Source: Folioceros fuciformis
Lineage: Eukaryota
DNA length: 20,000 nucleotides
Direction: 5' to 3'
Assembly (NCBI GenBank): GCA_049999805.1
Contig: JBNGIO010006046.1
Span: 49,944-69,943, forward strand
Numbering within the stretch: position 1 is the stretch's first letter; each line of letters begins with the position of its first letter. Shown piece after piece: positions 1,188-20,000 of this stretch. Below the pieces are notes generated by a model. It searched no databases and had not been told where the DNA came from. It saw nothing but the letters and a program-made list of their open reading frames with translations. A program made the translations under genes and the position numbers.

Positions 1188-3051
1188 AACTTGTGAAACT
1201 GTGTGCGGTCTTTTGAGGAGCAAGGCAAGGAGACCCTGAAGCAAGGAGTCGGAGGTAGGAGGCGTGTGGCATAGTGGGCAAGGAGGAGCCGAAGCATCTC
1301 GTTTATCTTTTGACAATGATTTGGCGTATGTTGTGTACTACTCACAAATTTCATGGTCATGGCCAACAAAACGAAATGAAAATAAGCTAACATGCAACAA
1401 CACCTATAGTTTGCATGTCACTTTCTTCTTCTTGGGTAGTGCTCGTTCTTCTATACCTGTAAATCGCATAAGCTTATTCGTCCCTTCGTATCTCTTCCAA
1501 GGCTGGTCTTGTGGTCTTCTGCATAAAGAGGCCTTGTGTTTGTTTCATTATTGTATATGCCTCATCTAGGATAGCAGGTTTGGCTTGAACTATGCTTTGC
1601 ATGTTCATATAGATGGCATCCAAGCCCCGACGTCGTTTCATCCTCAAATATGCCAAGTTAGGCGGGTTGCTTTGAAGGGTGGCCACATCTTCATTACTAC
1701 ACGGCACATGATCCTTATCCATTATCTTGTCACATGCCTAGCCTTCATCACTCACCACATTGAGTTCAGGTCGAACAAAGTACGTCCCTCCTCTTGCCCT
1801 ACAACATATCCTTCATTAGTATGCCAAGAAAGCTGTACTAGTTGAGAAGTTTCTTCAAATGTACTAGTTGAGAAGTTTCTTCAAATATACCACAAACATG
1901 TTGCACCTTTACGACATGCTTGCATAGAAAACCTCGCTGCCCCATTCCACATGAGCAAAAAGCCTAAGGAGAGTGTGCAACTTCAATACAATATAAGTGA
2001 TCATTGTCATTAGACAACATGCAATATGCAACAGTAGATCCAACTGTTGTGAAAAAGATGACAGTCTCGTCTACAATACTACTTGCTATAGCAACGACAT
2101 GTTCTTACACTTTTTTCAACTTTGAATTAGGTCTGTATCCTCTAGCCTTAGTGAAATCAAGATACCAATAATGCCGGGCTATCTTGTTCACTAGTTGATG
2201 CAATAACCAATCCATATGCCTACCTGGCAACGTTGCTTTGGTGAATGACACTCTTTCTTTCAGAAAACGGTTAAAAGCCTCCAAGGCAAACGTTGTGTCT
2301 TGTCCAGTATCAGGTATGCCCTATAGTTCTTCATCCACATTCCTGTGAAACAAAAATAAGGCATGTCAGTAGAAACAACGAAAAGGAACAATATAACTAG
2401 TTCACACTAACCCTGAACATCACAAATATTACCTACAAAGTTTCCCCACTGCTTTCGGAAGTAGTCGATGAATCCAGGCTCAGTAACATTCCACTCCTTA
2501 TAGAAAAACTCCAACAACACCTTACCCCATGCTATAGTCTTATCTTGTGTCTTGTGACCACTGACATACATAATGTTTGCAAGAGCTACTCGTATCGCCT
2601 TCCTTGCTACAGGACACTTAACCTTCTTCAAAAGGTTTCGCTGCCATGCCTGTCTAACATGCCAGAGGCACAAAACAACATTTATGTTTACTCCCCATAC
2701 CTGTTTGAACCCTCCCCACTAGAAAACAACTAGGAGTCCATGAAGAACATGTGTTCGTGCAATTCTTTTAAGAGGCCCCAACCAAGACACCTAAGACATT
2801 ACGGTAGCTTCTTGGGTTAGTGCCCATGCCATTGGAATACCATTCAAGTGGTGATAAAAAACCATGACATTAAATAGATGATACGTATACTTATTCAGCC
2901 CGAATGTAGCGTTCATTGCTAGAACACTATTGTTACCATGTTTGATCAACATGTGCCGCACAAAAGGAGTTTGCAGCCCTAAAATAAAAGGCTCATCCCA
3001 TTCTGATATATGAGATGAGCATGGAGTTTCAACCACATGTCAGTGGACGAT

Positions 3052-3349
3052 GATCAGGATCTAACTTCCCCTCGCGCTTCTACTTGTCATTTGATGTTCA
3101 AGATGACATGAACTTAGCANNNNNNNNNNTTCAAGATGACATGAACTTAGCATCATCAAGATCCAACTTCCACTCATGTGCTTCTACTTGTTGTTTGATA
3201 TTCAAGATGACATGGACTTAGCATCATCATGATCCAACTTCCACTCACGTGCTTCTACCTGTTGTGTGATGTTCAAGATGACATGAACATAGCATCATCA
3301 GGATCCAACTTCCACTCACGCCCTTTTACCTGTCGTTTGATGTTCAAGA
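3052..3349. repeat. 71-bp tandem duplication inside the transposase coding region
   Basis: TCAAGATGACATG... recurs at 3131, 3202 and 3273, with a partial copy at 3344 and one before the N-gap. The length is not a multiple of 3, so it shifts the frame. Confidence 0.85.
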
Positions 3350-3577
3350 CATCCTTTCATTGCATGTAATCATCGCGAACATCCCGGTGTGCTCTCCATG
3401 TATGTAGTTCAAGACATCCTTTCATTGCATGTAATCATCGCGAACATCCTCTCCATGTATGTAGTGACTCATCTTCTCGTACACAACTGCAACATGTTTG
3501 CGCATAATTTCTGAGACGAAAACCTTGCAATAAAGACATGGAGTGACCATCATATCGGGGACCATGATATGACAAAC

Positions 3578-3917
3578 TGTAGGGTTATTAAAGCCCAATG
3601 TGATTAAAGCCCAATGTGATTAGACTAATGTGTTTAGTCTAAGATTAGTGTCCAGTTTAGTCTAAGATTAGTGTCCAGTTTAGTCTAAGATTAGTATCTA
3701 GTTTAGTCTAAGATTAGTGTCTAGTTTAGTCTAAGATTAGTGTCTAGTTGATATTAATTTAGCTTAAGTAGTGTCTAGTTGATAATAATTTAGCTTAAGT
3801 TAATTTGTAGGAAGCTTGTTGGCAGCTTCCTGTGCTATGCGCTTCTTGTCAAGCTTCCTTGGGAGCTCTTCTATAGGGTATAAATACCCTCTTGAGCTCC
3901 CTTGCAATAATGTGAGA
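3578..3917 (+). mobile_element. LTR-like (U3-like) insertion inside the transposase
   Basis: Starts TGTAGGG and is flanked by AAAC direct repeats (3574-3577, 3918-3921). Removing it joins ...YTDQVGD to VCH...HGP. It holds 23-bp x5 (3632-3746) and 31-bp x2 (3738-3799) repeats and TATAAATA at 3879-3886. Confidence 0.55.
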
Positions 3918-4614: not shown

Positions 4615-4679
4615 CTCCATCAGAACATAAGCACGGTGCAAAGCGTGCTCGCTTTAGGGTTTAAGCAAAATGGTTGTTG

Positions 4680-5069
4680 AAGCTTAAACCCGGTTTCACG
4701 GCTGNNNNNNNNNNGCTTAAACCCGGTTTCACGGCTGCTCGCTTTAAGGTTTAAGCAAAATCGTTGTTGAAGCTTAAACCCGGTTTCACGGCTTACATGG
4801 TTACATCGGAGGTGGCAAAACTGAGAAAAACGAGTACAGGCGATCGCAATATGTGATTTCCTGTAGAGATGGTGAAAGAGAGATGCATGGCGATCGCAGT
4901 ATGTAATTTCCTGTACAGATGGTGAAAGAGAGATGCATGGCGATCGCATTATGTGATTTCCTGTAGAGATGGTGAAAGAGAGATGCATGGCGGAGGATGG
5001 GGACGCCATGCCACGGGGATCACACGCGAGGGCGAAGCATTTATTGGATCGGAGATTGAGACGCAGGCC
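4680..5069 (-). repeat. Right TIR of the MULE, with an internal 50-bp x3 duplication
   Basis: ACCCGGTTTCACGG at 4688, 4721 and 4778. The 50-bp unit GGCGATCGCA.TATGT.ATTTCCTGTA.AGATGGTGAAAGAGAGATGCAT occurs at 4839, 4889 and 4939. Confidence 0.85.
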
Positions 5070-5488: not shown

Positions 5489-8400
5489 CTATGCCCTGAA
5501 CAAATAACGCAGATCTGACTCGGACAGCCGAGTTCTTTGCTCCGTGAGCTCGGTCTCACCAAAAGCGGAAGCAACTATCTGCCTTTTATTGTCCTGCACA
5601 ACCCAGAACAACAGGGTCATCAACGGTGCGTCAAAGAGGAACGACATGCTACGCACAGGATTTGTAAAAGGTGAACTAACCAACCTGCAACGCTAAAATG
5701 CGGTCCTCAATTGTGTTCTTCACTGTGAAACGGGACACTTTCACAGGACGGGTTTGCCCAATACGATGTGCGCGATCAATAGCTTGATCTTCGGTTGTGG
5801 GATTCCACCAAATGTCCATCAGCAGGACATGGGACGCAGAGACCATGTTCAGTCCCAAGCTTGCTGCCTTCAAGGACATGATGATGACATTCACCTGCAA
5901 CACTTTGTCACAGCAACATGAGAACCAGGTACCTCAAAGTTGAGCAGTCCCATTGGAATCTCACCAACAGCAGCACATGCTCACCTCGGGAACTGTGTTG
6001 AACTCATGGACAGCACGATCTCTGGCATTGACAGACATAGTACCATCGAGCCGTCTGTAGCAAAATCCAGCTTGCTTCAACGGAGTTTCCAGCAGATCAA
6101 GCATGCCTGTCCACTGTGAAAAAACAATAGCCTTCTCCGTTGCAACTGAATGCTTCGTAAGGGCAAAGCTTTTGTCAACTTCAACCAGCGAACAAGTCTT
6201 TTCTCCCTTTACTTCAACCTGCCCTCTCTGTGTCGGTAAATCCGAAACAACAGCGTCAGGCAAGATTCCTACCGTCGTGTCAGTCACCTGCAACTTTGGT
6301 AGTGCCATCAGTGTACTGATGACAGCATCTATCTTAGAGGAAGAAACCCAAGCTTGGTTTGCCTCTGAGTCCAGAGTTAACTCCTGGCCCTTCACCGGCA
6401 TTGCATCGTCCAATATTGTGGCCTGGCCATTCAACGCAGCAAGAGAGTACAATTGAGATGATTTCAGAGCCTTCCTACACCCAGAAAATGGGCATATTGT
6501 ATCATCTCCGGCTCCCAGGTGCTGTAATATGCACTGCTCACAGAAGACATGATAGCAGGACGTCACAACTGCTTCCTCAAGAGCATCCTGCAGAGGGATT
6601 GAAGGTTTCAGTAACAAACAATGATGAAGGGAAGAAGGTAATGCAAAGAAACAATGATACAAAGATTCACCAAATGTTGATGAAACCCAATTGGTGCTTA
6701 GGTAGCTGAAAACATCTTATCACATATTTTTGGAGAAAACAAGGGGATTAAAGCATACATTGCATATGGAACAGATAGAATTGTTGTCCTCAACCATGGC
6801 AAGCAGCTGCCCTCGCTTGATCTCAGACAATGCGCAAACCGAGTCAATAGTGGATCGCTGGCGAGACTGGGAACTAAGGCCTTTAACGAGCTGCCTGTGA
6901 TCGCATGCCTGGCGTAGTCGCAGCAGTAACCACAATATGTTGACATAATTGTTCTGAACAGTTCCAGCTGCTGCATACATCTACACCATTCCAAAGTGAT
7001 GACGGCAGGTTAGCTTGAACCTTCATTTTCTGGTACAGATATCTAGTAAGCGGGGATCAACCAACTACGGCATCAATGCTACACAAAGAGCCACCTGAAA
7101 CTGCTCCCGAGACTCTTTCTCGAGACAAGTGTAGAACGCGCGTTCATCAGGAGTAAATTCTGCTTGTTTCAGTTCCACAATTCGAGGAGGCAACTTCACT
7201 ATTGGCTCTCCATCAATGAGGGTGCCTGGACACGCTGACAAAGGTTACGCTGCTGTTGTTTGAATTGCAATATGCATGGGAAAAGGACTAAGAACACGTC
7301 AGCCTGAAAAGACGAGAGTTTTTTTTCTTTCTTCTTTGGGGGGAGCTACGGCACTATGTTGTGCCAGCATGAAGTACTATTCTTGGACCAAGTACTGACC
7401 TTTGGTGCGCCGCAGCAGAATTCCACGTAGAATAGCCTGTAACTCACGATATCCTTCGGCAGGAAATCGGGTGATTTTTTCTTTTACTCTGGCCCGAAAC
7501 TCATTGTATTTATCATATGGTGAGTACCTCAGAAATCGGAAGTAACTGTAGAGGTCATCGATGGAGTTCTGAATGGGTGTTCCACTTAGACACCACCTCC
7601 TCTTGGCCCTCAAACCCCAGGCAGCACGGGCAACCTGTGTTTTTCCGTTCTTAATGCTTTGAGCTTCATCAAGAATAACCCGAAACCATGTGACCCTTGC
7701 TAAGGGCCCAGCATCTGAATGAGCTGAAACACCATCTTGTCCCTCAGTACCTCGGCCCCTTGGCTTCTTCCTCCCTTTGTCCGCTTTCTTTGCAGCCTTG
7801 GCTTGGAAGAAGCCATTGTTCAGTCCGTAGTCACTGTAGTTTCTTTTCTCTTCTTCCTGTTCCTCAGGAGATGGTTGCAAAGGCACCTCCAAACCAAGAA
7901 TTGAGTATGTGGTTAAAACCACGTCATATTTTGCAAGTTCTTCCGGGTCACGTGTCCTGCTTCCTCCGTGATAGATCACAAATGTCAGTCCTGCATTGGG
8001 GGACACCCTGGTCCTCAGTTCATTTGCCCATTGTCTCAGCACACTTGTGGGGCACACAACCAGAGTGCCCGCTGCGGGCCTTCCCTTGGTTGGGAAACAA
8101 GCACCATGATTTGGCGTCTTGTCATGAGCATGAGAGGGCCCATTTGTTATCGCTTCCTGGAGTTCAAATTCTTTGATATCTCGCTTGATTGGAAAACTCT
8201 TGCTCTCCTCCTCATCCTCAATATGGACAGTCTGTGGCTCTAGCAGTAAGGGACGTGACTGTTCACAATCTACATTCCGACGCGGTGGTCTGTTTTTCAA
8301 AATGAGAGAGATCGTTGAGATCGTCTTTCCAAGACCCTAGCACAGACAAGGACATGAACAACGTGAGCACAGAAAATGTGCATGCATTCATTCATCTATT

Positions 8401-10395
8401 TTGTCGTAAAGAACAAATTCCTCACGTCATTCATTGCAAAAGTCTCCCAAAACTACCTGATCATCTGCCAAGATGCCACCAACAGGGAGGTGCTCACTTG
8501 GAGCCTCCCTTTTCGTCATCCAATTGAGAGCAATCCTCTGCAATATCAACGTGACAGATATCCTCAATGTACTCTCACATTAAAATACAAATAGTATCTT
8601 TCAGAAAGAGAATTACACGAAGTTTTAAATCCACTTGACCACCCATTAGTGTACCTGATGCTTCAGAAGCTGAACAGTCATCAGACCCTCATCCAAACAT
8701 GATTCCTCTGAGGTAGGACCTTCTGCAAAAGTCTGAAACATCAACAGAAGATCTCGGTTAGAGGTTCCAACAGACAGCAAGACGCACTGAGAACCTTTCA
8801 AGAAAGCAGATAATCTCATAATCGCACAGCAGATCACGACATCGATAAATCATCTAAGGGGCCAGCTGATCCTACTTTTCCCCTGCTGACCACACTGTTG
8901 ATGTTCTGACCATGAAAGGTTCTTCTGATATTTTGTCCAATTCCAGAGGGTGGGATGGTCACTCTTGCACATAGATCATTGCTGTAAGGGTGAACCTGCT
9001 CCATCAAACGCCTTTGCGCATAGCCAGGCAGATCAAGGAGTTTGACATCGGGCCACTTCGTGATCGCAGGATGTCTGGCAGAGAGTCCGGCAGCAGCAAT
9101 CTGTTTGTTCAACAAGTCTGTTGGCAGAGATGCCACAGGTTTGGCAATATTCCAAGCTTGCGGTGCAGCTGCTTCTGACTTGACCCTAGAAAGATCAACA
9201 AGCTGAAATGCTGACTTATCCTGTTCATCAAACTTCTGGGCAACACAGGGAATCGTAACCCGATGCCGTTTGGCTACCGAATCCATCCATGCAGGAAGCA
9301 TTCGTTTTCCAAGCGCACTGCTCCCCACTTCCATTTGATCAGACAGTTCATCATCACTGCTTTCTATCTCAGTGAGGTCAACAAATCCATGCTTGATTAC
9401 AGCAGGCTGTTTTTTAGTGTCCCTCCCGTTTGCAGCTTGCACACTGGAGCTTCCAGGAAATGACATGACCATAACACACGTATCATCTTCAGAAGCAGCC
9501 ATCGCATCCTTGTGAAACTCAACAACGTCAGAGCATGGGGACAGCTCTCCAGTTGGTTCATTCACAAACCTAGACAGTGACGAAGTCACACCCTGCTTCC
9601 AATCTGATGCTAAAACAGAATCATCAGGTTGTTTGGGCCGATTACGGTCAATAAGCCTATCTGGTGTTCCGTAAGAGAAAAACCCTAACTCCTGTGATAA
9701 ATTGCTTGGAACTCCAAAAGTGAAGCTTTCCCCTCTCAGACCCTCGGATGAAGCAAAGCGGCTGCCTACTGCCATTCCTGAAGCAGCACAGTCTTTTGAT
9801 TTAGAACAGAAGAATAAGAATAGGGGTTGCAAGTCAGAGTCGACCAGAGCAGAACAGAAGACCCACAAGAGGAGTACCAGATGTTTGGGAGCCAGAATCC
9901 TGCCCAGCCAAGAAACCCCTTTGTTCTGCCAAAACTACAGTAGGCGAAAAGTCACTGTGTGACAAACTTCCTGGCGCCTCGACGTTGTTAGCCTGCCAGA
10001 AGGATGACGATGTTTTAATGAACAAACTGCCAAAGGTACAAACTGCAAAGCTAAAACTAGACCTAGCTTCCCATCGACTTGCACTGCAAAACACTTCATG
10101 CTAATATTACCTTTGGATCTTCTCTCATTAAAGCATAAAAATCGGCCAAATCAATATCAGCCTTGTCCCCATCACCCGTTAATTGTTCATCAGAGTCAGC
10201 AATAACCGCCGGCTCTACGATACCATCTTGGATTGCGGAGGTGTTGTAGCATTCATCCCCACTGACTTCACTGATTTCATCCTCAGAGCTGTGAGTCAAG
10301 ATATTTTCCATGCCATCAACCGTTGGGCGAACTGGAGGACGTGAAAACAGACTTCCCATTCCTCCACCATCGGCATGATCCCACGAGATTTTCAT
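5489..10395 (-). CDS. SNF2-family RING-finger helicase-like chromatin remodeller (Ris1/Rad5-16 subfamily, plant CHR27/CHR28 = FRG1/2-like), multi-exon
   Basis: Inferred exons (GT-AG): ~10395-10111, 9992-9878, 9792-8876, 8732-8655, 8537-8457, 8336-7400, 7225-7095, 6980-6759, 6587-5985, 5894-5685 and 5593-5489. Motifs: [12 protein letters not shown], Walker [27 protein letters not shown], Walker [27 protein letters not shown]3HC4 RING ([24 protein letters not shown]...CPFSGC), [27 protein letters not shown]. The start codon and 5' exons are uncertain. Confidence 0.93.
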
Positions 10396-11315
10396 CTTCT
10401 GGAGGTACTGAATATCTCTGCGCAATATTGTCCACAACCCGACAATCGCATGTCTACCCTGTTACAGCCACCCTTGGCGGCAGTTGTAGCACATTGACAG
10501 CAGCGAGAGACATCTGGAAGCCGATCCTACAACGCTTGCCGGTCGTAGGTGCAGGCTACGTGCTATGAAGCTCTCCTCTGACTTGTGTTTCCAAATCGAA
10601 TCCTGGAGCCACCTAGGAAAGATCAACCTTCCGGATAGAAACAAAAGCAGCAACATGCCCCCATGAAGGCAACGGCTGATTTCAGCATCAAAATCAAAAG
10701 AATCGGGCAAAATCACAAAAAAACGGTCGGACTTCACCCAGTACGTCACAATCAAAAGCAGCAAACAAGTGCAGGAATTGCTGGGCCCGTCACACGTTTC
10801 TTGCACGAGCAGCTCATCTGGACTACAACCTTCCCAACAACCAGTCAGCACCCCAACTCCCCCGACATACAATCGGTGTCTCTCGTGTTTCATTCTGGTG
10901 CCCCAGCCCCTGATGTCTCCAGCTCCGAGCGAAACCCGTTCGTCTCCAGCTCCACATCAGACAATTCACCACACGGGCCTGGCCTCACGTCGGACACCCG
11001 CAATGGCCAGACGCTTCAATATCCTCAGTCCGACTAACCAGTGATTCTCATCGTCCTCAAGCTGACTAAGTACTGAGAGATGGCTTCCTCATAGCTGAAA
11101 CATACCGGTAGACGATCCCGACGCAGCCAAGGTGGGTAGCATACAATGCAACAGTTGTGACGCTGGTATCAGAACATCGGCAGCAGTCCGTAGATTAGGG
11201 TCTCTCGATCGGCTTGAGGCAGGCATAACACAGATTACACTCTTCCTCGTCCGACCTAGGGCTCTGTTCTTGCCTTACACTTCACGCGTGCCCAATTGCA
11301 ATCCCGCTCCTCCAC

Positions 11316-11324: not shown

Positions 11325-12068
11325 GAGTGCCGACCGAGTCTCGCCTCGGTATCATGCCTGTTAGTCTTCGCCGATCCATTGTAGCGACTTGCTGAGTTGT
11401 CGAGCCTTCCAATGCTCCCTCGAGGTTTATGGTGGCCCGTATTTGAGCCACGTTTTCCGCTTCTTTTCGCCGAACTTGTCTCTCTCTAGTAAGCTTAAAC
11501 CTTTTTAACATCAAACCCGCATTCTCGTTCAAAAATAAAAATTGAAGCACGATTAAAGATTACGATTGTTTTGATACATAAACGACGTTCAAGTTATGTA
11601 TAATCATTTCTTTATACATAAAAAAACCTTAAACCTGAATTTGAAGCTCAAAGTTCATTGTGTGAAGGCTCAAGGGTCTTTTTACAAAGGCCCCACCAAT
11701 GAGATGATATATTTAAGTTTAAATCTCTTTATTTTTTTAATCTATTAAAGAAGAAAAAGGAAATCTTTCGAGTCCACCAAGGAGACATGACTATGTCCAT
11801 TCATTGAGGAATAAAAGAAAAGGTGAAACTAATTTAATTTCATGTCTTTTGCACTTCTCCTTTTCATATTATTTAATCCACCCATTGGGTACGGACCATG
11901 TTGTATGATGAAAGGTCCTATTTAAGGAGGTAACACTTTATAGAATTCTCCTTTAAGAAGGGCCAACTACATATATTTGAGTAAGTTCAAAATAATTGCT
12001 ATCAACACATGCAATATATAGATATAAGTAAAGTTGTGGGCCATTGATTTGGGAATAGCACCATAGTA

Positions 12069-12372
12069 TAGCTTCTAGACATGGATCTTAGTAGGTTCAT
12101 TTTAGATAGTTTCTAGACATGGATCTTAGTAGGTTGATTTTAGATAGCTTCTAGACATGGATCTTAGTANNNNNNNNNNNNNNNNNNNNNNNNNNNNNNN
12201 NNNNNNNNNNNNNNNNNNNNNNNNNNNNNNNNNNNNNNNNNNNNNNNNNNNNNNNNNNNNNNNNNNNNNGATCTTAGTAGGTTGATTTTAGATAGCTTCT
12301 AGACATGGATCTCAGTAGGTTCATTTTAGCTTTTGGACATGAGATCTTTGTAGGTTCATTTTAGCTTTTGAA
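12069..12372. repeat. 38-bp tandem array spanning a 100-N gap
   Basis: TAGCTTCTAGACATGGATCTTAGTAGGTT(C/G)ATTTTAGA at 12069, 12107 and 12145, and again after the gap. Confidence 0.9.
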
Positions 12373-12613
12373 CATTGCATCTTTATAGAGCGAGAGAAAG
12401 TTGGAAAGGGGAGCAACATATGGTGCCTCTTCGATGGGTGGCAGGCCCTCTTATCCATTTGGTGCATTGTGGCACATCATAAGGAAAGTAGTCCACATCC
12501 CAAAGCCTAAGACTTAGTGTCACAAGAAACATTAGGGAAAGTATCCTTGTAAGCCCTCTTAAGATGCCAATACCATCTTCACATCATACTCAAGACTGAA
12601 AGACCAAGTCCTT

Positions 12614-12828
12614 AACCTTGGCCATGCACCTCAAGTCCTATGAACCTTGACCACACACCCCAAGGCCTTACTAGACACTATGCAACCACACAACTTGGCC
12701 GTGCACCTCAAGCCCTATGAACCTTGACCACACGCCCCAAAGCCTTACTAGACACTGTGCAACCACACAACTTGGCCATGCACCTCAAGCCCTTACTACT
12801 AGATACTATACAACCACACAACTTGGTC
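12614..12828. repeat. ~77-bp tandem repeat, ~3 copies
   Basis: CTTGGCC(A/G)TGCACCTCAAG...CTTACTAGACACT...CAACCACACAA repeated. Confidence 0.85.
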
Positions 12829-13099: not shown

Positions 13100-14200
13100 T
13101 ACAACTAGAGCAAGCTGTCATAATCCGATATTTTCTTCACGAAAAAAAACGAGTGAGGAAGACCATACCACACCCCACTGATTCGAGAGCCATGGTTGGG
13201 CTAAAGCCTCATCTAGTCCAAATAAGGCAGTTTGCTTTGCGAATAAGAAATTTTTCATAGAGAAGAGCCACCATAACCACGTGCCCACTTCTCGCCAAAC
13301 ACCTTGCTCAAAGTTGCATTGAAAGAACAAGTGTTGGCTTTTGTTAGGGGCACCCAGTGCTTCACATTGTGCACCGTTCCTCCCCCGTAGCCACTAACAG
13401 TCTGTCCCAACGGTTGGCGTTAGGCAAGCACGCTTGGAAATTACTCGAGGGATAAAATCTTGCTCCAAAGACCTCTAAAACCTTGTGGAGGAATACCAAG
13501 CACATCGTCCCTATTAAGGGTCTTTGCCACAATGAGGAAGGCTTTAACCTCTAGGTAGTTGCTCTAAATTGAGGCTAAAAGTGGCGAACAATCCTTGGTA
13601 TCTAGTAAGGGCTTATCGGCTAGAATGTTGTCCATCAACCTCCGTCCTTGAATTTGATCCAAGTGCTAGGTTAACTAGCTTTACCAAGAGTATCTGGTTG
13701 GATTTGTAGCCTTTAGAACCCATTCCGCATGTAAAGTTTCTTGGGGTCCACTAGTCCCACACTGCCCAACTACTTGGACTAAATAATATGCTGCCATGCC
13801 ACCTTATGAAATGAGAAGAGGACTCCATAAGAAGTGAGTCACAATTTGTTGCAATCTCCTCAAATCTGCCTTACTAGGAGCCCATAGGAAGAGACAATAC
13901 CATCAAGAAGCAGTCAATATGTGGTTTATCACTACAATCTTCTAGTAGTAACTTGAAGGTCAGATCCCTAGTAGTTGGGGTACTTTCCCCACAAGCTCCA
14001 TTCCTATTGCTGTAGCCAATTTTACCAAGTCAGCTTTTAATTGTACAGGTACTTGTCATGCTGTTGCTGTATGGGAAACAGAGCACCTAAGACTCTATGA
14101 CTGGATACTGACTAGAGCATCCTGGGCATAAGCCCTGAATGCTGAAATGACTAGATACTGACTGGAGCATCTCGGGCATAAGCCCTGATGCTGAAGTGCT
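13100..14200 (-). mobile_element. Degenerate L1-clade LINE ORF2 fragment (end of RT through zf-RVT)
   Basis: Minus-strand remnants in the expected order: SASGLMP (~14195-14170, like ASGLxxN), Y*G (~13970, like YLG), AWQHII*SK*LGSVGLVDP (~13800-13745, like AWxxIxxPKxxGGLG), FQACLPNANRW...CTM and QHLFFQCNFEQGVWREV (~13440-13285, zf-RVT). There are many stops and frameshifts. Confidence 0.7.
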
Positions 14201-14728
14201 TGATGATGTCATGTACATGGCCCATGGATGGCCTGCACATGACATGTATGCCATCTATGCATGTGTGCCATGTATGCATGCATATGGAGATGAAGGATGA
14301 CATGTGATGTATGTGGACATGTGGCAGGTGATGTGTCATGGTGCATGCAACCTATATGCATGGTTGTGCATGAAAGGTGCATGCAACCTATATGCATGGT
14401 TGTGCATGAAAGGCGCGGTGCTATGCCGCATATATAGATAGCAGATTTATATTAGAAGATATTAGAAAATACATAAAAATCATAAATCAAGGAAAGTAGG
14501 ATTATAAAGTGCCCACCATCGATACGGGTGGACACTTCATCGAGAACTCCTGGGGGTTTTTGCCTATATATGTAGGCACCCAGCCATGGATTCTCGGATT
14601 GTTGATGTTTGTCTTGTTCCAATAGACAGCCATACTTCGTCCCTGCTGTGTCTTTGTCTCCTAGAGGTTCTTGTGGTTCGTTGCATTGCCAGGTTGGGAG
14701 AATTTTCCAGCTTGATTTCACCACATCA
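14201..14728 (+). repeat. Putative 5' LTR (~525 bp)
   Basis: TGATG(T) at 14201/14204 and (A)CATCA at 14723-14728 form inverted ends. LINE homology stops at ~14200. There is a TATATAT at 14565 and a 36-bp x2 repeat at 14340-14411. The second LTR is outside the window, so the boundaries are unconfirmed. Confidence 0.6.
14565..14571 (+). promoter_or_regulatory. LTR TATA box inside the inverted repeat TGCCTA-TATATG-TAGGCA
   Basis: TATATAT lies 30 nt upstream of the sequence complementary to the putative PBS. Confidence 0.6.
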
Positions 14729-14896
14729 ACAATCCGCTTGTTGGGGACTAAGATACGGTACTGGAGGAGACTGTGGCGCGCTGGAGATTGGATGAAGAGG
14801 CGGAAATCGTCCACCATCCAACCCAGGAGACAGCTGCGATCCGAGAAGGTTGGGTGTTGCAGAGGCAGCACTAAGAGATAGGCTGATGTTTTTCTG

Positions 14897-15121
14897 ATGG
14901 ACAGGAATTCTGCCATTGATTATACACGGCTTAGGTGTGGTAGTCTCACGATTGCTGAGTTAGCAGAGCTGTCTGGAGAAGAGCCTGCATACGTCTGGAG
15001 TCGTTTGTGGATAGAGGCAGTGGATGTACTTTTCTGGCTAGCTGATTGGGCTAACGGTGGAAACAATTTGCCCTTTGACAACATCCGTGCAGTGGTCAGG
15101 CATAGGAGAAGTAACCATTGA
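14897..15121 (+). CDS. 74-aa upstream ORF of unknown function whose stop overlaps the gag-pol start (TGATG)
   Basis: ATG at 14897. TGA at 15119-15121 shares its A with the ATG at 15121-15123. No homology recognised. Confidence 0.4.
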   Translation: MDRNSAIDYTRLRCGSLTIAELAELSGEEPAYVWSRLWIEAVDVLFWLADWANGGNNLPFDNIRAVVRHRRSNH

Positions 15122-18100
15122 TGGTGTTCCTGAGATCAGGGTGGACTGACGAAAGGACACCTGCGCCGTCTTCAGTCGGAGAAGTGCACGACGGCTACTA
15201 CTCGCCATTCAAGAGGACACCGGAACAATACAGAGACAACGCGCCAGTCACAAGGAGACAGTTTGGCGATTGGAGCGGAGAGTCTGCAAGAATGGAGCTT
15301 GAGTTCACACCAAGTAAGAACGATGTCTTCACAGGAAAACATGGAAGCATGTCTCTTGCAGATTTCGAGGAGAAGTTTCGTTGGGCAATGGCGGAAAACA
15401 AGATGAAATACAAGGACGAGTTCACTCAGAGGATGGCGTTCATGAAGATGTCATCCTACCTTGCGGGTGAGGCTCTAATGTATTACAGAGATGAGAAGGC
15501 TGGGATCCTGAAGGTGGCCGAGAGAAGAGAAGCAGTGCACGAGGCGGCCAAGAGGGCTGGTTCGACTGCACCCCCTACTGACGAGGACAAGCTCGAGCAT
15601 CTGGTGGACTTGATGTTCGCCAAGTTAACCACCATGTTTCCTACAGCTTCGCTGGAAAAGATCCAGGAACTGTCGAGGTTTTCTTTCAGGCCTAACGAGA
15701 CATTGCGTGCATCTTACCTCAGACTGAAGGTTCTGGTGGAAGACACGGGAGTGAAGACGATGAGGGAGGCTGCCGAGATCTTCATGGCAGCATTGCCTGC
15801 CAGACAAAGAAGGAAGGTAATGGACTCGCTGCATGGAGCGATGGGAGAAAGATATCAGTTGATAGACGCCTACCAAATTGCTGAGAAGGTGCTCAAAGGA
15901 GATGCAGTAAGCCAGGCTTACTTGGAAAATCACGGAGTCGTGAAGGGCTCCTCGCAGCACGGGTCTGGAGGACACGGGAATTCCAGGTTTGTTCCAAGGT
16001 ACCAGTACCGGGAGCAAGCACAGTCCTCAGGACATGGCAAGCAGCCACATGCGCCGAAGGAGAGGCCAGCTAACAATGCAGGTCAAGCAGCTGTGAAGTG
16101 TGGCAGATGCTGTGGAGCGCACAAGGCGTTCGAATGCGACTACAAGCCAGGTGGTCCGAAGGGCAAGGAAGCCTGTAAGTCTTGTGGCAGATGGGGTCAC
16201 ATGGAGGCAGCGTGTTGGGAAGCTCATCCAGAGCTGAAGCCCAAGCTTGCACCAGCTGAGAACGAGAAGGGCAAGGGCCCGAGTCGTAAGGCTCTCCTTG
16301 GGCAAGTGGAGGAGCTCAAGAAGGAGATGGCCAACATGGCCAGCAGAATAGAGCAGAGGATTTTGTTCTCTGACTCTGATGATGATGAGGCATTTGGCAT
16401 GATGGCGGTGCGCAAGAAAAAGAAAAAGGCTGTTGCTAACTTTGGTGAAGGCGTCACTGCGAAGGGAGTGCCGGAACGGGAATCGACCAAGATGCCGGAG
16501 AGTTTCCGGCAGGTCGAGGGAAACTCCACGACACAGAAGGTGTCAAGATCAGGTCGAGACGTTGAGGCGTTGCTGGACAAGGCCATGGAGGTGCCTGCAG
16601 TAAGTCTTGTGGATCTGGGAGTGAAAGGCAACAACTTCAAAAACATCATGCGAGAATGGCTGAGAAAGGAGCTTGAATCCGCAGGATCTCTCCCTAGTAT
16701 GGCCAGTTTGTGTGGCGAGCATCTGATGCCAGAGGCGCGAGGTGGAGGAGGTGTTGCCATGATTGATAACACGGGACGGCACGTGACCTTTGATGGCTAT
16801 GCTCCAGTAAACGTACTTGTAGACACAGGAGCGGATCCGGTACTGCTGGGAGCACGGGTGCAGGAGGCACTAAAGCTGTACGGACACAAGCTCGTTCCGA
16901 GCGACGTGAACATCACCACCTCTGCAGGTACCAAGGAACAGGTACTGGGAATGACGAGGAGGCTCGTGAAGATTGAATTGAAGCCTGGCACGAAGGATGC
17001 CAGCATCGTTGAAGTGAGATGTTTGGTCACCAGTGCGAAGACATATGATGTCTTGCTGGGGTCGGACGGAACTCACCGTCCTGCCATGGGGGTTGATCCC
17101 TTGCACGCTGAAGCTTTCTACAGACCATTCTGGTGGAGAGGAGATTTCACGCATGTTGCACGAATTCCTCTAAGGATGAATAGGAGTGGTGGCAAGAGCA
17201 GGACGAGGATGACAGGCAGCACCATGATTGCCCACAGTGCTCAGAGTGAACATCGACATGAGATGTGGGAGGAAACGCAGGAGTTATCCTCTCTGGAGAT
17301 GCCAAAGCCAAGAGAGCAGAAGGGTGTGCTTAAGGTGGTGCGCTCAGAATATTTGGATCAAGCGAGGGTTCGAGAGAACCAGCAAAGGAAGGAGGATCGA
17401 CCGTGGAATCTCACAGACACATGTCCTGAGAGGTCGATCCCAAGTATGGGGCCTGCCAAGTCGGGAGATCGACGCATCGACGATGCTCTAGTACGATGGA
17501 AGGTGGGCGCTCAAGGCATCCATTTGTTGGAGCTCTGCTCGGGAATCAGCAGTGGCCTGGAAGCGGTGTTGCAGTGTGGCGTCAAGATACGGCAATATAC
17601 CTGCGTGGAGAAGGATGAGAAGATTCGAGCTGTCGCTAGGGGTCGAATCCTCAGGTTCTGCAAACAGTATCCAACACTACTGAGCGAGGAAGCAGTTCGA
17701 GGCTGTCAGAGCAGGCTGCCCACAGACGTGAACCTGGTTGGGAAGCGGCAGCTACAAGCCTTGTCAAGCCCAGTGGATATGCTGATCGCGGGATGGGAAT
17801 GCAAGACATTTTCGACAGCAGGCAGAGGCAACGGTGAAGGCGTTTCGTTGGCTGCTGAGCTCGCACGAATCACGCGAGAAGTCCAGATTGCTAATCCACG
17901 ATGTTGGTACATTCTGGAGAATGTGTGTGCAGCCATGGACAAACGTCCAGCTGTTAGGGCCCTGTATGAAGAGATTCGGGCGTGGTTCGGCAATGAGCTG
18001 ATCATGGACGAGGTGCAGTGTGGCTCATATGCACACAGGCTTCGCAGTTACTGGACAAATGTGGCTGGACTGGAGGTGCTCAGACAGCACAGGAATTTGA

Positions 18101-20000
18101 CAACTCCGAAGCGGAAGGTTGTGGATGATATCCTAGAGTTGGGAAGGTGCTCACAACAGGTGAAGAGGATGGACAAGTTGCCATTTTACCCTGTGAATCG
18201 AGTAGGGGAATCCAGAAGGGCATGGCCAACTCTGGTGAGCACACCGCAATCTTATGCCTTCAGACCAGGAGGAGATGGTGTGATTCTGGATTTGAAAGGG
18301 AATGAGCTTGGAGAGCTCAATGTTGAGGAACGCGAGCAAGCGATGGGCTTTGCCAAGAAGGACACTCAGACCATGGGCATCACAGAATCTGCAAGGTGCA
18401 GGATGCTCGGACAGGCATTTGACTTGTACAGTCTAAGGTGGCTGGTAAGCACAGGCTTGGCGTTCCAACTTGCAGAAGCCAAAGGGAAGCGAAGGCCTTT
18501 CCTCCAACTACTGCAGGATAAAGAGGTTCCTAAGGCAGAGGAAGACGAGCTGCTGCGGGAGAGATTCAGCATGGCCGCTGTGGATACTGAACTGTCCACC
18601 AAGAGTGTGACGAAAGAGGTTCATGTATGGCACATTGCAGAAGATGTGAGCCCGGAAGATAAGCAGAAAATCATCGACATGCTTGAGAAAAACAAGGGTG
18701 CTTTTGCATTCAGTTGGAAGGAGCTGGGCAGGTATGAGAAGATCAAGTTCAAAGTAGTGACGACTCATGAAGAGCCCGTCTTCAGAAGGAGGCACCGCCT
18801 CAGTTCAGCAGAATGGGCGATTGTTGACAAACGCTGTCAAGAGTTGTTCGAAGCGGGGTTGATACGAAAATCAAGCTCTCAATATGCTGCTGCGACTGTC
18901 CTACCGCTCAAAAAGGATGAGAACGGTGAATGGAAGGACAGGAGGATGTGTGGCGACTACCGACCTCTAAACGAGGTGACTCCTATGGAACGGTACCCCA
19001 TGCCTACTCCAGACGAGATTTTCGATGCCATAGGTAAGGCAAAATTCTTTACCAGTTTGGACTTCCGCTCAGGCTTCAACCAAATTGTGATTGAAGAGCA
19101 GGACAAGTGCAAGACAGCCTTCTGGGGGAAGGACCAGCTTTGGGAATGGGAGACGATGCCGTTTGGGCTGAAGAATGCTTCCATATATTTCCAAAGAATT
19201 GCAGATCTGGAGCTGCAAGGGCTGCCATTTGTGCGTTGCTACATAGATGATATCCTGGTCTTCAGTGAGACAATCGAAGAACATATGGAGCATCTAGAGA
19301 TATTGCTACAGAGGCTGTCAAGCTCGGGTTTGAAAGCTCATCCTAAGAAATGCAAGTTTGCTTTCCAGCAGATCGAGTATCTGGGGCATGAGATAGTACC
19401 AGGAGGCATCATGCCTCAGCTGGCTAAGGTGCAGGCCGTGATGCAAATGCCTAGACCAAAGGATGTAGCCGCTCTTAGAGCCTTCCTGGGTTTGGTGAAC
19501 TATTACAGGAGATTTATGAAGGATCTCAGTTCCACGTGTAAACCTCTGTATGAGCTGTTGAAGAAAGACATTGTGTGGAAATGGAACCAAAACCAGGAGT
19601 TGGCTTGGCAAGATCTTCGGGACCAGTTGGCAGAAAAGCCTATGTTGGCCAGGCCGAATTTTGATCACCCTTTCACTCTGTACACAGACTGGAGCACTGC
19701 GGGGATTGGAGCAGTGTTGTCACAACATGATGCAGATGGTGTTGAGCGAGTGATAGCTTATGCAAGCCGATCTAACAACTCCGCTGAAGTGAACTACTCC
19801 TCATATGAGGGAGAGTGTCTTGCTGCGGTATGGGCAGTTCTGCATTTCAGGGTCTATCTGTATGGAAGGCGTTTTCAACTGGTCACAGATCACCAGCCAC
19901 TTCATTGGCTGATGACCAACATGAAGTTAAGTGGTAAGCTAGCCAGATGGGCACTGCTACTATCTGAGTACGATATGGAGATCGTGCACAGGGCAGGCAA
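15121..20000 (+). CDS. Gag-Pol polyprotein (Gag, zinc knuckles, aspartic protease, DNMT, RT, RNase H), 3'-truncated by the window
   Basis: Hand translation shows no stop from ATG 15121 (in-frame TAA at 15112) to the window end. Zinc knuckles CGRCCGAHKAFEC (16099-16137) and CKSCGRWGHMEAAC (16174-16215); protease LVDTGA (D at 16822) and YDVLLGSD; RT RMCGDYRPLN, LDFRSGFNQI, MPFGLKNA, YIDD (19240-19251), YLGH; RNase H LYTDWS...GAVLSQ, IAYASR, EGECLA, TDHQPL. Confidence 0.97.
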   Translation, partial: MVFLRSGWTDERTPAPSSVGEVHDGYYSPFKRTPEQYRDNAPVTRRQFGDWSGESARMELEFTPSKNDVFTGKHGSMSLADFEEKFRWAMAENKMKYKDEFTQRMAFMKMSSYLAGEALMYYRDEKAGILKVAERREAVHEAAKRAGSTAPPTDEDKLEHLVDLMFAKLTTMFPTASLEKIQELSRFSFRPNETLRASYLRLKVLVEDTGVKTMREAAEIFMAALPARQRRKVMDSLHGAMGERYQLIDAYQIAEKVLKGDAVSQAYLENHGVVKGSSQHGSGGHGNSRFVPRYQYREQAQSSGHGKQPHAPKERPANNAGQAAVKCGRCCGAHKAFECDYKPGGPKGKEACKSCGRWGHMEAACWEAHPELKPKLAPAENEKGKGPSRKALLGQVEELKKEMANMASRIEQRILFSDSDDDEAFGMMAVRKKKKKAVANFGEGVTAKGVPERESTKMPESFRQVEGNSTTQKVSRSGRDVEALLDKAMEVPAVSLVDLGVKGNNFKNIMREWLRKELESAGSLPSMASLCGEHLMPEARGGGGVAMIDNTGRHVTFDGYAPVNVLVDTGADPVLLGARVQEALKLYGHKLVPSDVNITTSAGTKEQVLGMTRRLVKIELKPGTKDASIVEVRCLVTSAKTYDVLLGSDGTHRPAMGVDPLHAEAFYRPFWWRGDFTHVARIPLRMNRSGGKSRTRMTGSTMIAHSAQSEHRHEMWEETQELSSLEMPKPREQKGVLKVVRSEYLDQARVRENQQRKEDRPWNLTDTCPERSIPSMGPAKSGDRRIDDALVRWKVGAQGIHLLELCSGISSGLEAVLQCGVKIRQYTCVEKDEKIRAVARGRILRFCKQYPTLLSEEAVRGCQSRLPTDVNLVGKRQLQALSSPVDMLIAGWECKTFSTAGRGNGEGVSLAAELARITREVQIANPRCWYILENVCAAMDKRPAVRALYEEIRAWFGNELIMDEVQCGSYAHRLRSYWTNVAGLEVLRQHRNLTTPKRKVVDDILELGRCSQQVKRMDKLPFYPVNRVGESRRAWPTLVSTPQSYAFRPGGDGVILDLKGNELGELNVEEREQAMGFAKKDTQTMGITESARCRMLGQAFDLYSLRWLVSTGLAFQLAEAKGKRRPFLQLLQDKEVPKAEEDELLRERFSMAAVDTELSTKSVTKEVHVWHIAEDVSPEDKQKIIDMLEKNKGAFAFSWKELGRYEKIKFKVVTTHEEPVFRRRHRLSSAEWAIVDKRCQELFEAGLIRKSSSQYAAATVLPLKKDENGEWKDRRMCGDYRPLNEVTPMERYPMPTPDEIFDAIGKAKFFTSLDFRSGFNQIVIEEQDKCKTAFWGKDQLWEWETMPFGLKNASIYFQRIADLELQGLPFVRCYIDDILVFSETIEEHMEHLEILLQRLSSSGLKAHPKKCKFAFQQIEYLGHEIVPGGIMPQLAKVQAVMQMPRPKDVAALRAFLGLVNYYRRFMKDLSSTCKPLYELLKKDIVWKWNQNQELAWQDLRDQLAEKPMLARPNFDHPFTLYTDWSTAGIGAVLSQHDADGVERVIAYASRSNNSAEVNYSSYEGECLAAVWAVLHFRVYLYGRRFQLVTDHQPLHWLMTNMKLSGKLARWALLLSEYDMEIVHRAG
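17518..18450 (+). other. DNMT3-like C5-cytosine DNA methyltransferase domain within the polyprotein
   Basis: Motif I LLELCSGISSG (17524-17556); II YTCVEKD (17596-17616); III DV (~17725); IV VDMLIAGWECKTFSTAG (Cys at 17800-17802); VI YILENV (17908-17925); VIII GSYAHRLRSYWTN (18022-18060); IX LNVEEREQAMGF (18316-18351); X ITESARCRMLGQAFD (18379-18423). Confidence 0.93.

Follow-up and report, generated by a model that had tools for sequence, protein, structure and literature searches.

A Ty3/gypsy element with a Dnmt3-like domain in Folioceros fuciformis: split repeats, a putative self-primer and a proposed route of integration

The DNA described here, called the window below, is a stretch of 20,000 nt from Folioceros fuciformis (assembly GCA_049999805.1, contig JBNGIO010006046.1, positions 49,944-69,943 of the forward strand). 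It holds the exons of an SNF2-type helicase gene with a RING finger (5961-10461, minus strand), minisatellite arrays (568-822, 3050-3772 and 12046-12826) and a pair of inverted repeat blocks (912-1185 and 4628-5069) lying ~3.5-4.1 kb apart. About 3.6 kb past the last long frame of the helicase gene, and in the opposite orientation, lies a retroelement whose features are collected in Table 1. Just beyond its 3' end there are frames (L031, ~7900-9650; G000:C6046:76900-78650) whose motifs, judged by eye, resemble those of a plant diterpene synthase gene. The integrase, the PHD finger, the G-run tract and the B-A-B repeats of the element lie outside the window and were read from its sister copies L076 and L078. 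The own-genome assembly is fragmented (7240 contigs) with gaps at the repeats of the element, and the two TACT sites of the window copy are separated by a 5-kb N gap. The copies compared comprise 39 stretches of related own-genome families and 80 metagenome loci.

Table 1. Features of the element within the window (positions in the window)
Feature	Position	Strand	Remarks
Left 4-bp target-site duplication, TACT	14050..14053	+	TACT also follows the B end at G000:C6046:75119
Repeat A, 5' copy	14054..14722	+	Starts TGTCA, ends TTTCACC; length 669 bp (most copies: 633 bp)
TATA-like box (TATATAT)	14565..14571	+	30 nt 5' of arm 1
Arm 1, predicted RNA 5' end and self-primer	14595..14608	+	Perfect complement of arm 2
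Second helix, 5' strand	14644..14661	+	Pairs with 14743-14760; crosses the primer helix
Arm 2, putative primer-binding site (PBS)	14723..14736	+	Begins at the first base past repeat A
Second helix, 3' strand	14743..14760	+	Shortly 3' of the primer-binding site
gag-pol, single open frame	15115..20000, runs off the window	+	Met at 15121 and 15292
Aspartyl protease	16783..17067	+	PF13650
C5 cytosine methyltransferase-like domain	17509..18480	+	PF00145 below cut-off; best solved structure DNMT3A, E 3e-4
Reverse transcriptase core	18931..19395	+	PF00078; best solved structure Ty3 RT
RNase H	19582..19971	+	PF17917/PF17919

The element, of the Ty3/gypsy type, combines a DDE integrase with a PHD finger and a Dnmt3-like domain. 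Its domains stand in the PR-RT-RH-IN order with an rve integrase, the latter being taken from L076, and its TGTC...GACA ends and 4-bp duplication agree with the TG...CA ends and 4-6 bp duplications of Ty3/gypsy elements. The two complete and identical terminal LTRs of this group are absent, the layout being A-int-B-A-B with a 5' repeat that ends in CACC. The Dnmt3-related domain lies within the gypsy pol frame, where its matches to solved structures are weak but specific to DNMT3A, and PF00145 scores above its cut-off in six of eight relatives scanned. The catalytic Cys of this domain is kept as GWEC, against GSPC in DNMT3A, and EN(V) and an RxR-like motif are also kept. A protein search returned 720 relatives among 8000 candidates, and a search with the DNMT domain gave 125 matches. 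Among the 120 relatives listed, most have PHD and/or DNMT domains, none has a chromodomain (PF00385), and the named plant sources are Marchantia and Closterium, beside many environmental contigs. One relative (P0114), labelled as a bacterial MAG protein and probably a contaminant, has the RT, DNMT, integrase and PHD in another domain order. In a quick RT tree, built without a Tf1 or Tcn1 reference, the clade of the element forms one branch (SH-aLRT 98) apart from five own-genome chromodomain elements. Pfam analysis of the two 3' frames of L076 returned rve, H2C2 and PHD only, with no recombinase match, and membership in PAT/Ngaro (DIRS order) was rejected for want of a tyrosine recombinase. 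Four 99%-identical copies (L076, L077, L253 and L256) have internal deletions that remove RT or RT-RH and keep the ends, and these are possibly non-autonomous forms.

The end of the 5' repeat was located by searching the own genome with positions 14400-14900. Many of the 44 matches end at query base 323, which is 14722, and arm 2 therefore starts 0 nt after repeat A. An earlier note on this DNA had put the end of an LTR at about 14725-14728, 3-6 nt too far downstream, and had assumed an ordinary LTR pair, which the copies contradict, as the repeats are split. In sister copies of about 99% identity, the 3' half runs from the integrase zinc finger, the rve core and the PHD finger through the G-run to B, GC, A and B, and the layout is therefore A-internal-PPT-B-A-B. 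The termini of the element are TGTC...GACA, and target duplications of 4 bp flank it. The same layout recurs in own-genome family 2, whose RT is 56% identical, and in two metagenome repeat families, and in all four repeat families the G-run stands directly 5' of the first B (B1). Repeat A is only a part of the functional LTR and appears to comprise R-U5 and, of U3, the promoter portion. In the window copy it contains a 36-nt tandem duplication (14343-14378) which is missing from most copies and is skipped by contigs of two DNA runs.

At 19 own-genome loci, a constant unit of 206 bp, B, stands directly after A and ends in GACA, and the 4-bp duplications flank A..B, not A..A. The duplication is exact in 12 of 14 contiguous A-B solos, with one a base off and one showing no match; of the whole A-int-B-A-B units, L153 and C6246 have an exact duplication, L132, L145, L148 and L155 one with a single mismatch, and L139 and L200 none. 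Own-genome target duplications are G/C-rich, and at 4 of 35 external A starts the preceding bases are TGGC. At the B|A joint stands the palindrome GACA-GC-TGTC, the halves of which are the two termini of the element, and it is kept across families that are only ~50-56% identical in RT. It is exact at L089, L091, L093, L104, L125, L129, L168, L171, L189, L204 and L222, and GACAGCTGTC is found exactly in own-genome family 2 and at the metagenome loci L129, L168, L171, L189 and L204. The A|B joint is variable and holds residue of the plus-strand primer tract. Among 21 such joints of family 1, 18 are flush, two include the first PBS base and one has a 13-nt insert ending in GGGGGC, the tract that precedes B1, and the joints of family 2 contain 0-3 extra G; judged by its sequence, the A|B joint looks like a joining seam. 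Also present are A-int-B forms with duplications (L151 and L167), five int-PPT-B ends running into flank and many A-B solos. One locus (L256, G000:C6226) shows an int-B-A-PBS-int tandem with a damaged joint, which is either a tandem copy or an assembly artefact, and at L116 (425-755) a long near-perfect inverted repeat with perfect stretches of 35, 24 and 22 nt lies 5' of a related element.

In Schizosaccharomyces pombe, Tf1 primes reverse transcription by annealing the 5' end of its mRNA to the PBS, and its self-primer arm measures 11 nt. The same manner of priming, without a tRNA, had been proposed in the earlier note for the present element, and the features on which it built are all in the sequence: the perfect 14-bp reverse complement, the start of arm 1 at 30 nt after the TATA at 14565, and the lack of a TGG-initiated PBS after the repeat end, the nearest TGG being at 14742. 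A perfect 14-mer anchored at the repeat end is expected by chance 2.5e-6 times under uniform base composition, and an unanchored perfect pair of this length, spaced by less than 300 nt, 0.02 times in the window under the same assumption. The two arms are the sole perfect pair of at least 14 bp in the window with arms less than 3 kb apart. PMC6317226, in its available part, asks of a self-primer that 10 bp or more be complementary to a site beginning 0-5 bp past the LTR; the Tf1/sushi type is recognized by such a match after the 5' LTR, and the element has 14 nt at offset 0.

The end of A was set by homology and the pairing was then sought at other joints, as a perfect match of 10 nt or more between a stretch of A and the complement of the bases that begin 0-5 nt past this end; no rows were dropped beyond the filters of the script for gaps and short ends. 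Among the 46 joints at which something other than B follows A, 21 have such a pairing, as opposed to 0 of 54 A|B joints. The 25 non-B joints that fall short of 10 nt comprise, among others, degenerate copies, copies that lose an arm to a gap or a contig end, errors of offset and A|B joints filed in the wrong class. In most matching copies arm 2 lies 0-2 nt after A. The arms are not the same in the four repeat families, measuring 14 nt (family 1), 18-21 nt (family 2), 13-16 nt (family 3) and 16-17 nt (L171), or 13-21 nt overall, and the pairing is nevertheless kept, which is the compensatory covariation that the earlier note had suggested looking for. L095 and L097 differ from the window copy by transversions that leave the pairing intact, which deamination cannot explain, whereas some compensations in family 2 are of the CpG/CHG type, for which deamination is a possible source, and provide weaker evidence. 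An automatic DNA alignment of six leaders failed to bring the arms of L094, L095 and L097 into register, and no pair count was taken from it. TATA-like boxes stand 30-32 nt before the arm in the window copy, L097, L145 and L167; families 1 and 3 have this spacing, and family 2 has no clear TATA at -30. The TATA spacing and the failure of 39 tRNAs to match the PBS also speak for self-priming. Because arm 2 adjoins the A end and the pairing is kept in related families despite their differing arms, Tf1-like self-priming, with a start site that is predicted only, is well supported and, as far as sequence comparison can tell, very probable.

The leader offers a second helix that crosses the one formed by the primer, and this may be a 'pretzel' duplex or a competing fold. 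In nested folding, the primer helix forms at P near 1 in seven of eight other leaders. In the window leader its P drops from 1.00 to 0.00 when 14760 is included, a hairpin over the PBS and the crossing helix displacing it, in a fold that is nested only, as the folding program cannot score pseudoknots. The second helix outdoes shuffled sequence at the 2% level or better in only 3 of 14 leaders. The small hairpin (14726-14744), predicted in L079 and L080 too, covers the PBS and could act as a switch gating priming. An Rfam search gave a single chance-level match, and a bacterial promoter scan, the model of which is not apt for this DNA, gave nothing.

Primer site and plus-strand tract fix the cDNA ends in standard LTR reverse transcription, and a 2-nt 5' overhang is typical of integrase-processed ends. 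From the layout, which stands in the genome as described, we infer an integration route of five steps. Transcription would start ~30 nt 3' of the TATA box, near 14595. The first ~14 nt of the RNA would then anneal to 14723-14736, be cut free as in Tf1 and start minus-strand synthesis at the A end, a step to which we give the same high likelihood as to self-priming itself. Strong-stop DNA would jump to the 3' A, and plus-strand synthesis would begin at the G-run before B. With the minus-strand 5' end fixed at the A end and the plus-strand start at B, the LTR of reverse transcription would be B+A and the product, as the anatomy suggests, B-A-int-B-A. In the fourth step, the A end would be joined to or extended onto the B start, by closure of a two-LTR circle or an end-to-end jump of RT, and this would make the variable A|B joint. 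Finally, the DDE integrase would cut GACA-GC-TGTC after CA on each strand, leaving TGTC...GACA ends with a 2-nt overhang, and A-int-B-A-B would be inserted with the 4-bp duplication, the latter being seen in the genome. Since the inserted form starts at A and ends at B, both termini would come from the B|A palindrome and the second B (B2) would be added after A in each cycle. These last two steps, end joining and palindrome cutting, we consider probable.

A closed circle with two cut sites would be expected to yield four inserts, A-int-B-A-B, A-B-A-int-B, A-int-B and A-B, of which A-int-B and A-B can also be obtained by ordinary recombination between repeats. If the circle were symmetric, A-B-A-int-B should be as frequent as A-int-B-A-B, and the counts are contrary to this: B stands 5' of the first A at 0 of 22 metagenome loci and 0 of 11 family-2 places, which disfavours a symmetric circle with random site choice. 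In the single candidate, L008 with L250, the duplication CGTT is the same on both sides and recurs at no other of the 35 starts and 36 ends examined; this candidate spans a 100-N gap and two contigs of the fragmented assembly. As A-B-A-int-B is nearly absent, one-way plus-strand extension onto the start of B explains the data no worse than the symmetric circle, and perhaps better. As a whole, the route of a self-priming, split-repeat Ty3/gypsy element integrating through an internal attachment site is judged moderately likely. The broadest form of the claim, namely an old green-plant Ty3/gypsy clade in which the ends of reverse transcription are split from those used by the integrase, and which self-primes, must join its cDNA ends and has a DDE integrase that cuts an internal GACA-GC-TGTC, is about evenly poised.

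Template switching has been proposed for split-repeat elements with a tyrosine recombinase, and a reading along these lines would retain self-priming and derive B2 from the RNA instead of from end joining. The RNA would run through B2, switches between B1 and B2 and between the two copies of A would rebuild the ends, the B|A palindrome would be the template restoring both termini, and the integrase would use ordinary linear ends. Such a course would agree with the near absence of A-B-A-int-B, and how many extra G the A|B joint holds does partly follow the subfamily within family 2, as an inherited joint would. However, a primer at the A end fixes the minus-strand 5' end, so that copying B2 from RNA needs a second priming, of which none was seen; the joint inserts match residue of the tract; and L228 has one extra G that copies 99% identical to it lack. 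We regard this reading as unlikely.

It is less likely still that the inverted pair is a conserved structure of the 5' leader, serving packaging, dimerisation or translation control, and that priming falls to a tRNA fragment or the RNA 3' end. The predicted nature of the RNA start and the nested fold of the window copy, devoid of the primer helix, would leave room for it, as would the tRNA set, which is incomplete (39 tRNAs with 19 anticodons, from 40 of 63 listed loci, without Met and seven other amino acids). Within this set, the best match of a tRNA 3' end to the PBS is 6 nt and the best internal one 7 nt, in line with the tRNA-free priming of the earlier note, and there is no tRNA at the six other exact 13-mer sites, five of which are older copies of repeat A. 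A leader structure would also have to be reconciled with the position of arm 2 right after A, the presence of a G-run plus-strand tract, and a PBS whose sequence changes from family to family, as is more to be expected of a co-evolving self-primer than of a fixed tRNA. Separately, L287 has a TGG-type site 5 nt after its LTR. An ordinary LTR element whose LTR is A, beside or carrying a separate small repeat B, or an artefact of collapsed repeats, might be suspected from the fragmented assembly with its gaps, but is hardly credible given duplications that flank A..B, a B that differs between families with position and palindromic joint kept, and other assemblies in which complete A-int-B-A-B units each lie within one contig.

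In the accepted view, integration of LTR retrotransposons and retroviruses uses a linear cDNA that is trimmed at both ends, and circles are mostly treated as by-products, with exceptions in vitro such as that of PMC1180852. If the proposed route of self-priming and end joining is true, an LTR-type integrase would have an obligate joined intermediate, standard LTR finders would miss the clade, and a widespread clade whose inserted form is the permuted two-LTR product would make the question of circle versus linear DNA directly testable. The conserved combination of split repeats, a DDE integrase and an internal palindromic attachment site is more surprising than self-priming. The latter would add a self-priming plant lineage to Tcn1 and TAR, the only ones given for plants in the accessible part of PMC6317226. 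That survey, in the same part, required TG...CA LTR pairs with duplications, and surveys of this kind would therefore miss these elements, though they are numerous here; the words 'PHD' and 'methyltransferase' are absent from the portion available. The route would also explain the odd repeats noted for KnitGypsy-Dnmt3 of Klebsormidium nitens.

Troyka is another element with unusual repeats. As far as its available account goes (PMC12440569), it has CG...CG ends and a 3-bp duplication as against TGTC...GACA and 4 bp here, and it is unrelated. The nearest described element is KnitGypsy-Dnmt3, for which the legend of Fig. 4c of PMC5890265 gives DIRS-like repeats, A-coding-B-A-B, with Gypsy domains. 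According to the accessible text, it resembles the present element in a Gypsy polyprotein whose pol frame includes a Dnmt3-related domain and in the DIRS-like repeats, and the two, compared by description, most likely belong to the same clade, though no row under the name K. nitens came up among the relatives, most of whose rows are nameless; the same text deals with neither priming, palindromic joint, target duplications nor the handling of the repeats by a DDE integrase. A streptophyte Gypsy-DNMT3 is mentioned in bioRxiv 10.64898/2026.05.21.726589, with no mechanism in the part available. No account of a priming or integration route for this clade was found in a literature search that left subscription papers, Repbase reports and theses mostly outside, and a prior description elsewhere is possible.

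Split repeats in the order A1-coding-B1-A2-B2 are shared with PAT/Ngaro (PMC7192593). In the sections available, that work ties them to tyrosine recombinases, which PAT/Ngaro use, and PMC8557442 counts them a DIRS feature, whereas the integrase of the present element is of the rve type, its ends are TG...CA and its duplications measure 4 bp. Foamy-virus integrase, in the accessible account, cuts the palindromic junction of two-LTR circles (PMC1180852), and the model shares with it a DDE integrase that would obtain processed ends by cutting a palindrome. The foamy-virus palindrome is described there as the joint of two cDNA ends, whereas that of the element would be an encoded site inside the LTR, distinct from the place where its cDNA ends meet, the inserted form being permuted. 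With Tf1/sushi elements, including plant Tcn1, the element shares a complement of the RNA 5' end, which is a predicted one here, to a PBS right after the LTR and the lack of a tRNA site, as given in the parts available of PMC6317226 and PMC10085805, and its crossing helix resembles the extra duplex beside the PBS in the Tf1 pretzel of the latter. It differs from them by its PHD finger in the place of a chromodomain, by a DNMT domain and split repeats, by arms of 13-21 nt and by a 5' repeat whose last bases are not CA. Without a chromodomain, the element is no chromovirus and is not filed as Tf1/sushi, and the term 'Tf1-like' of the earlier note thus stands for the mechanism and not for membership.
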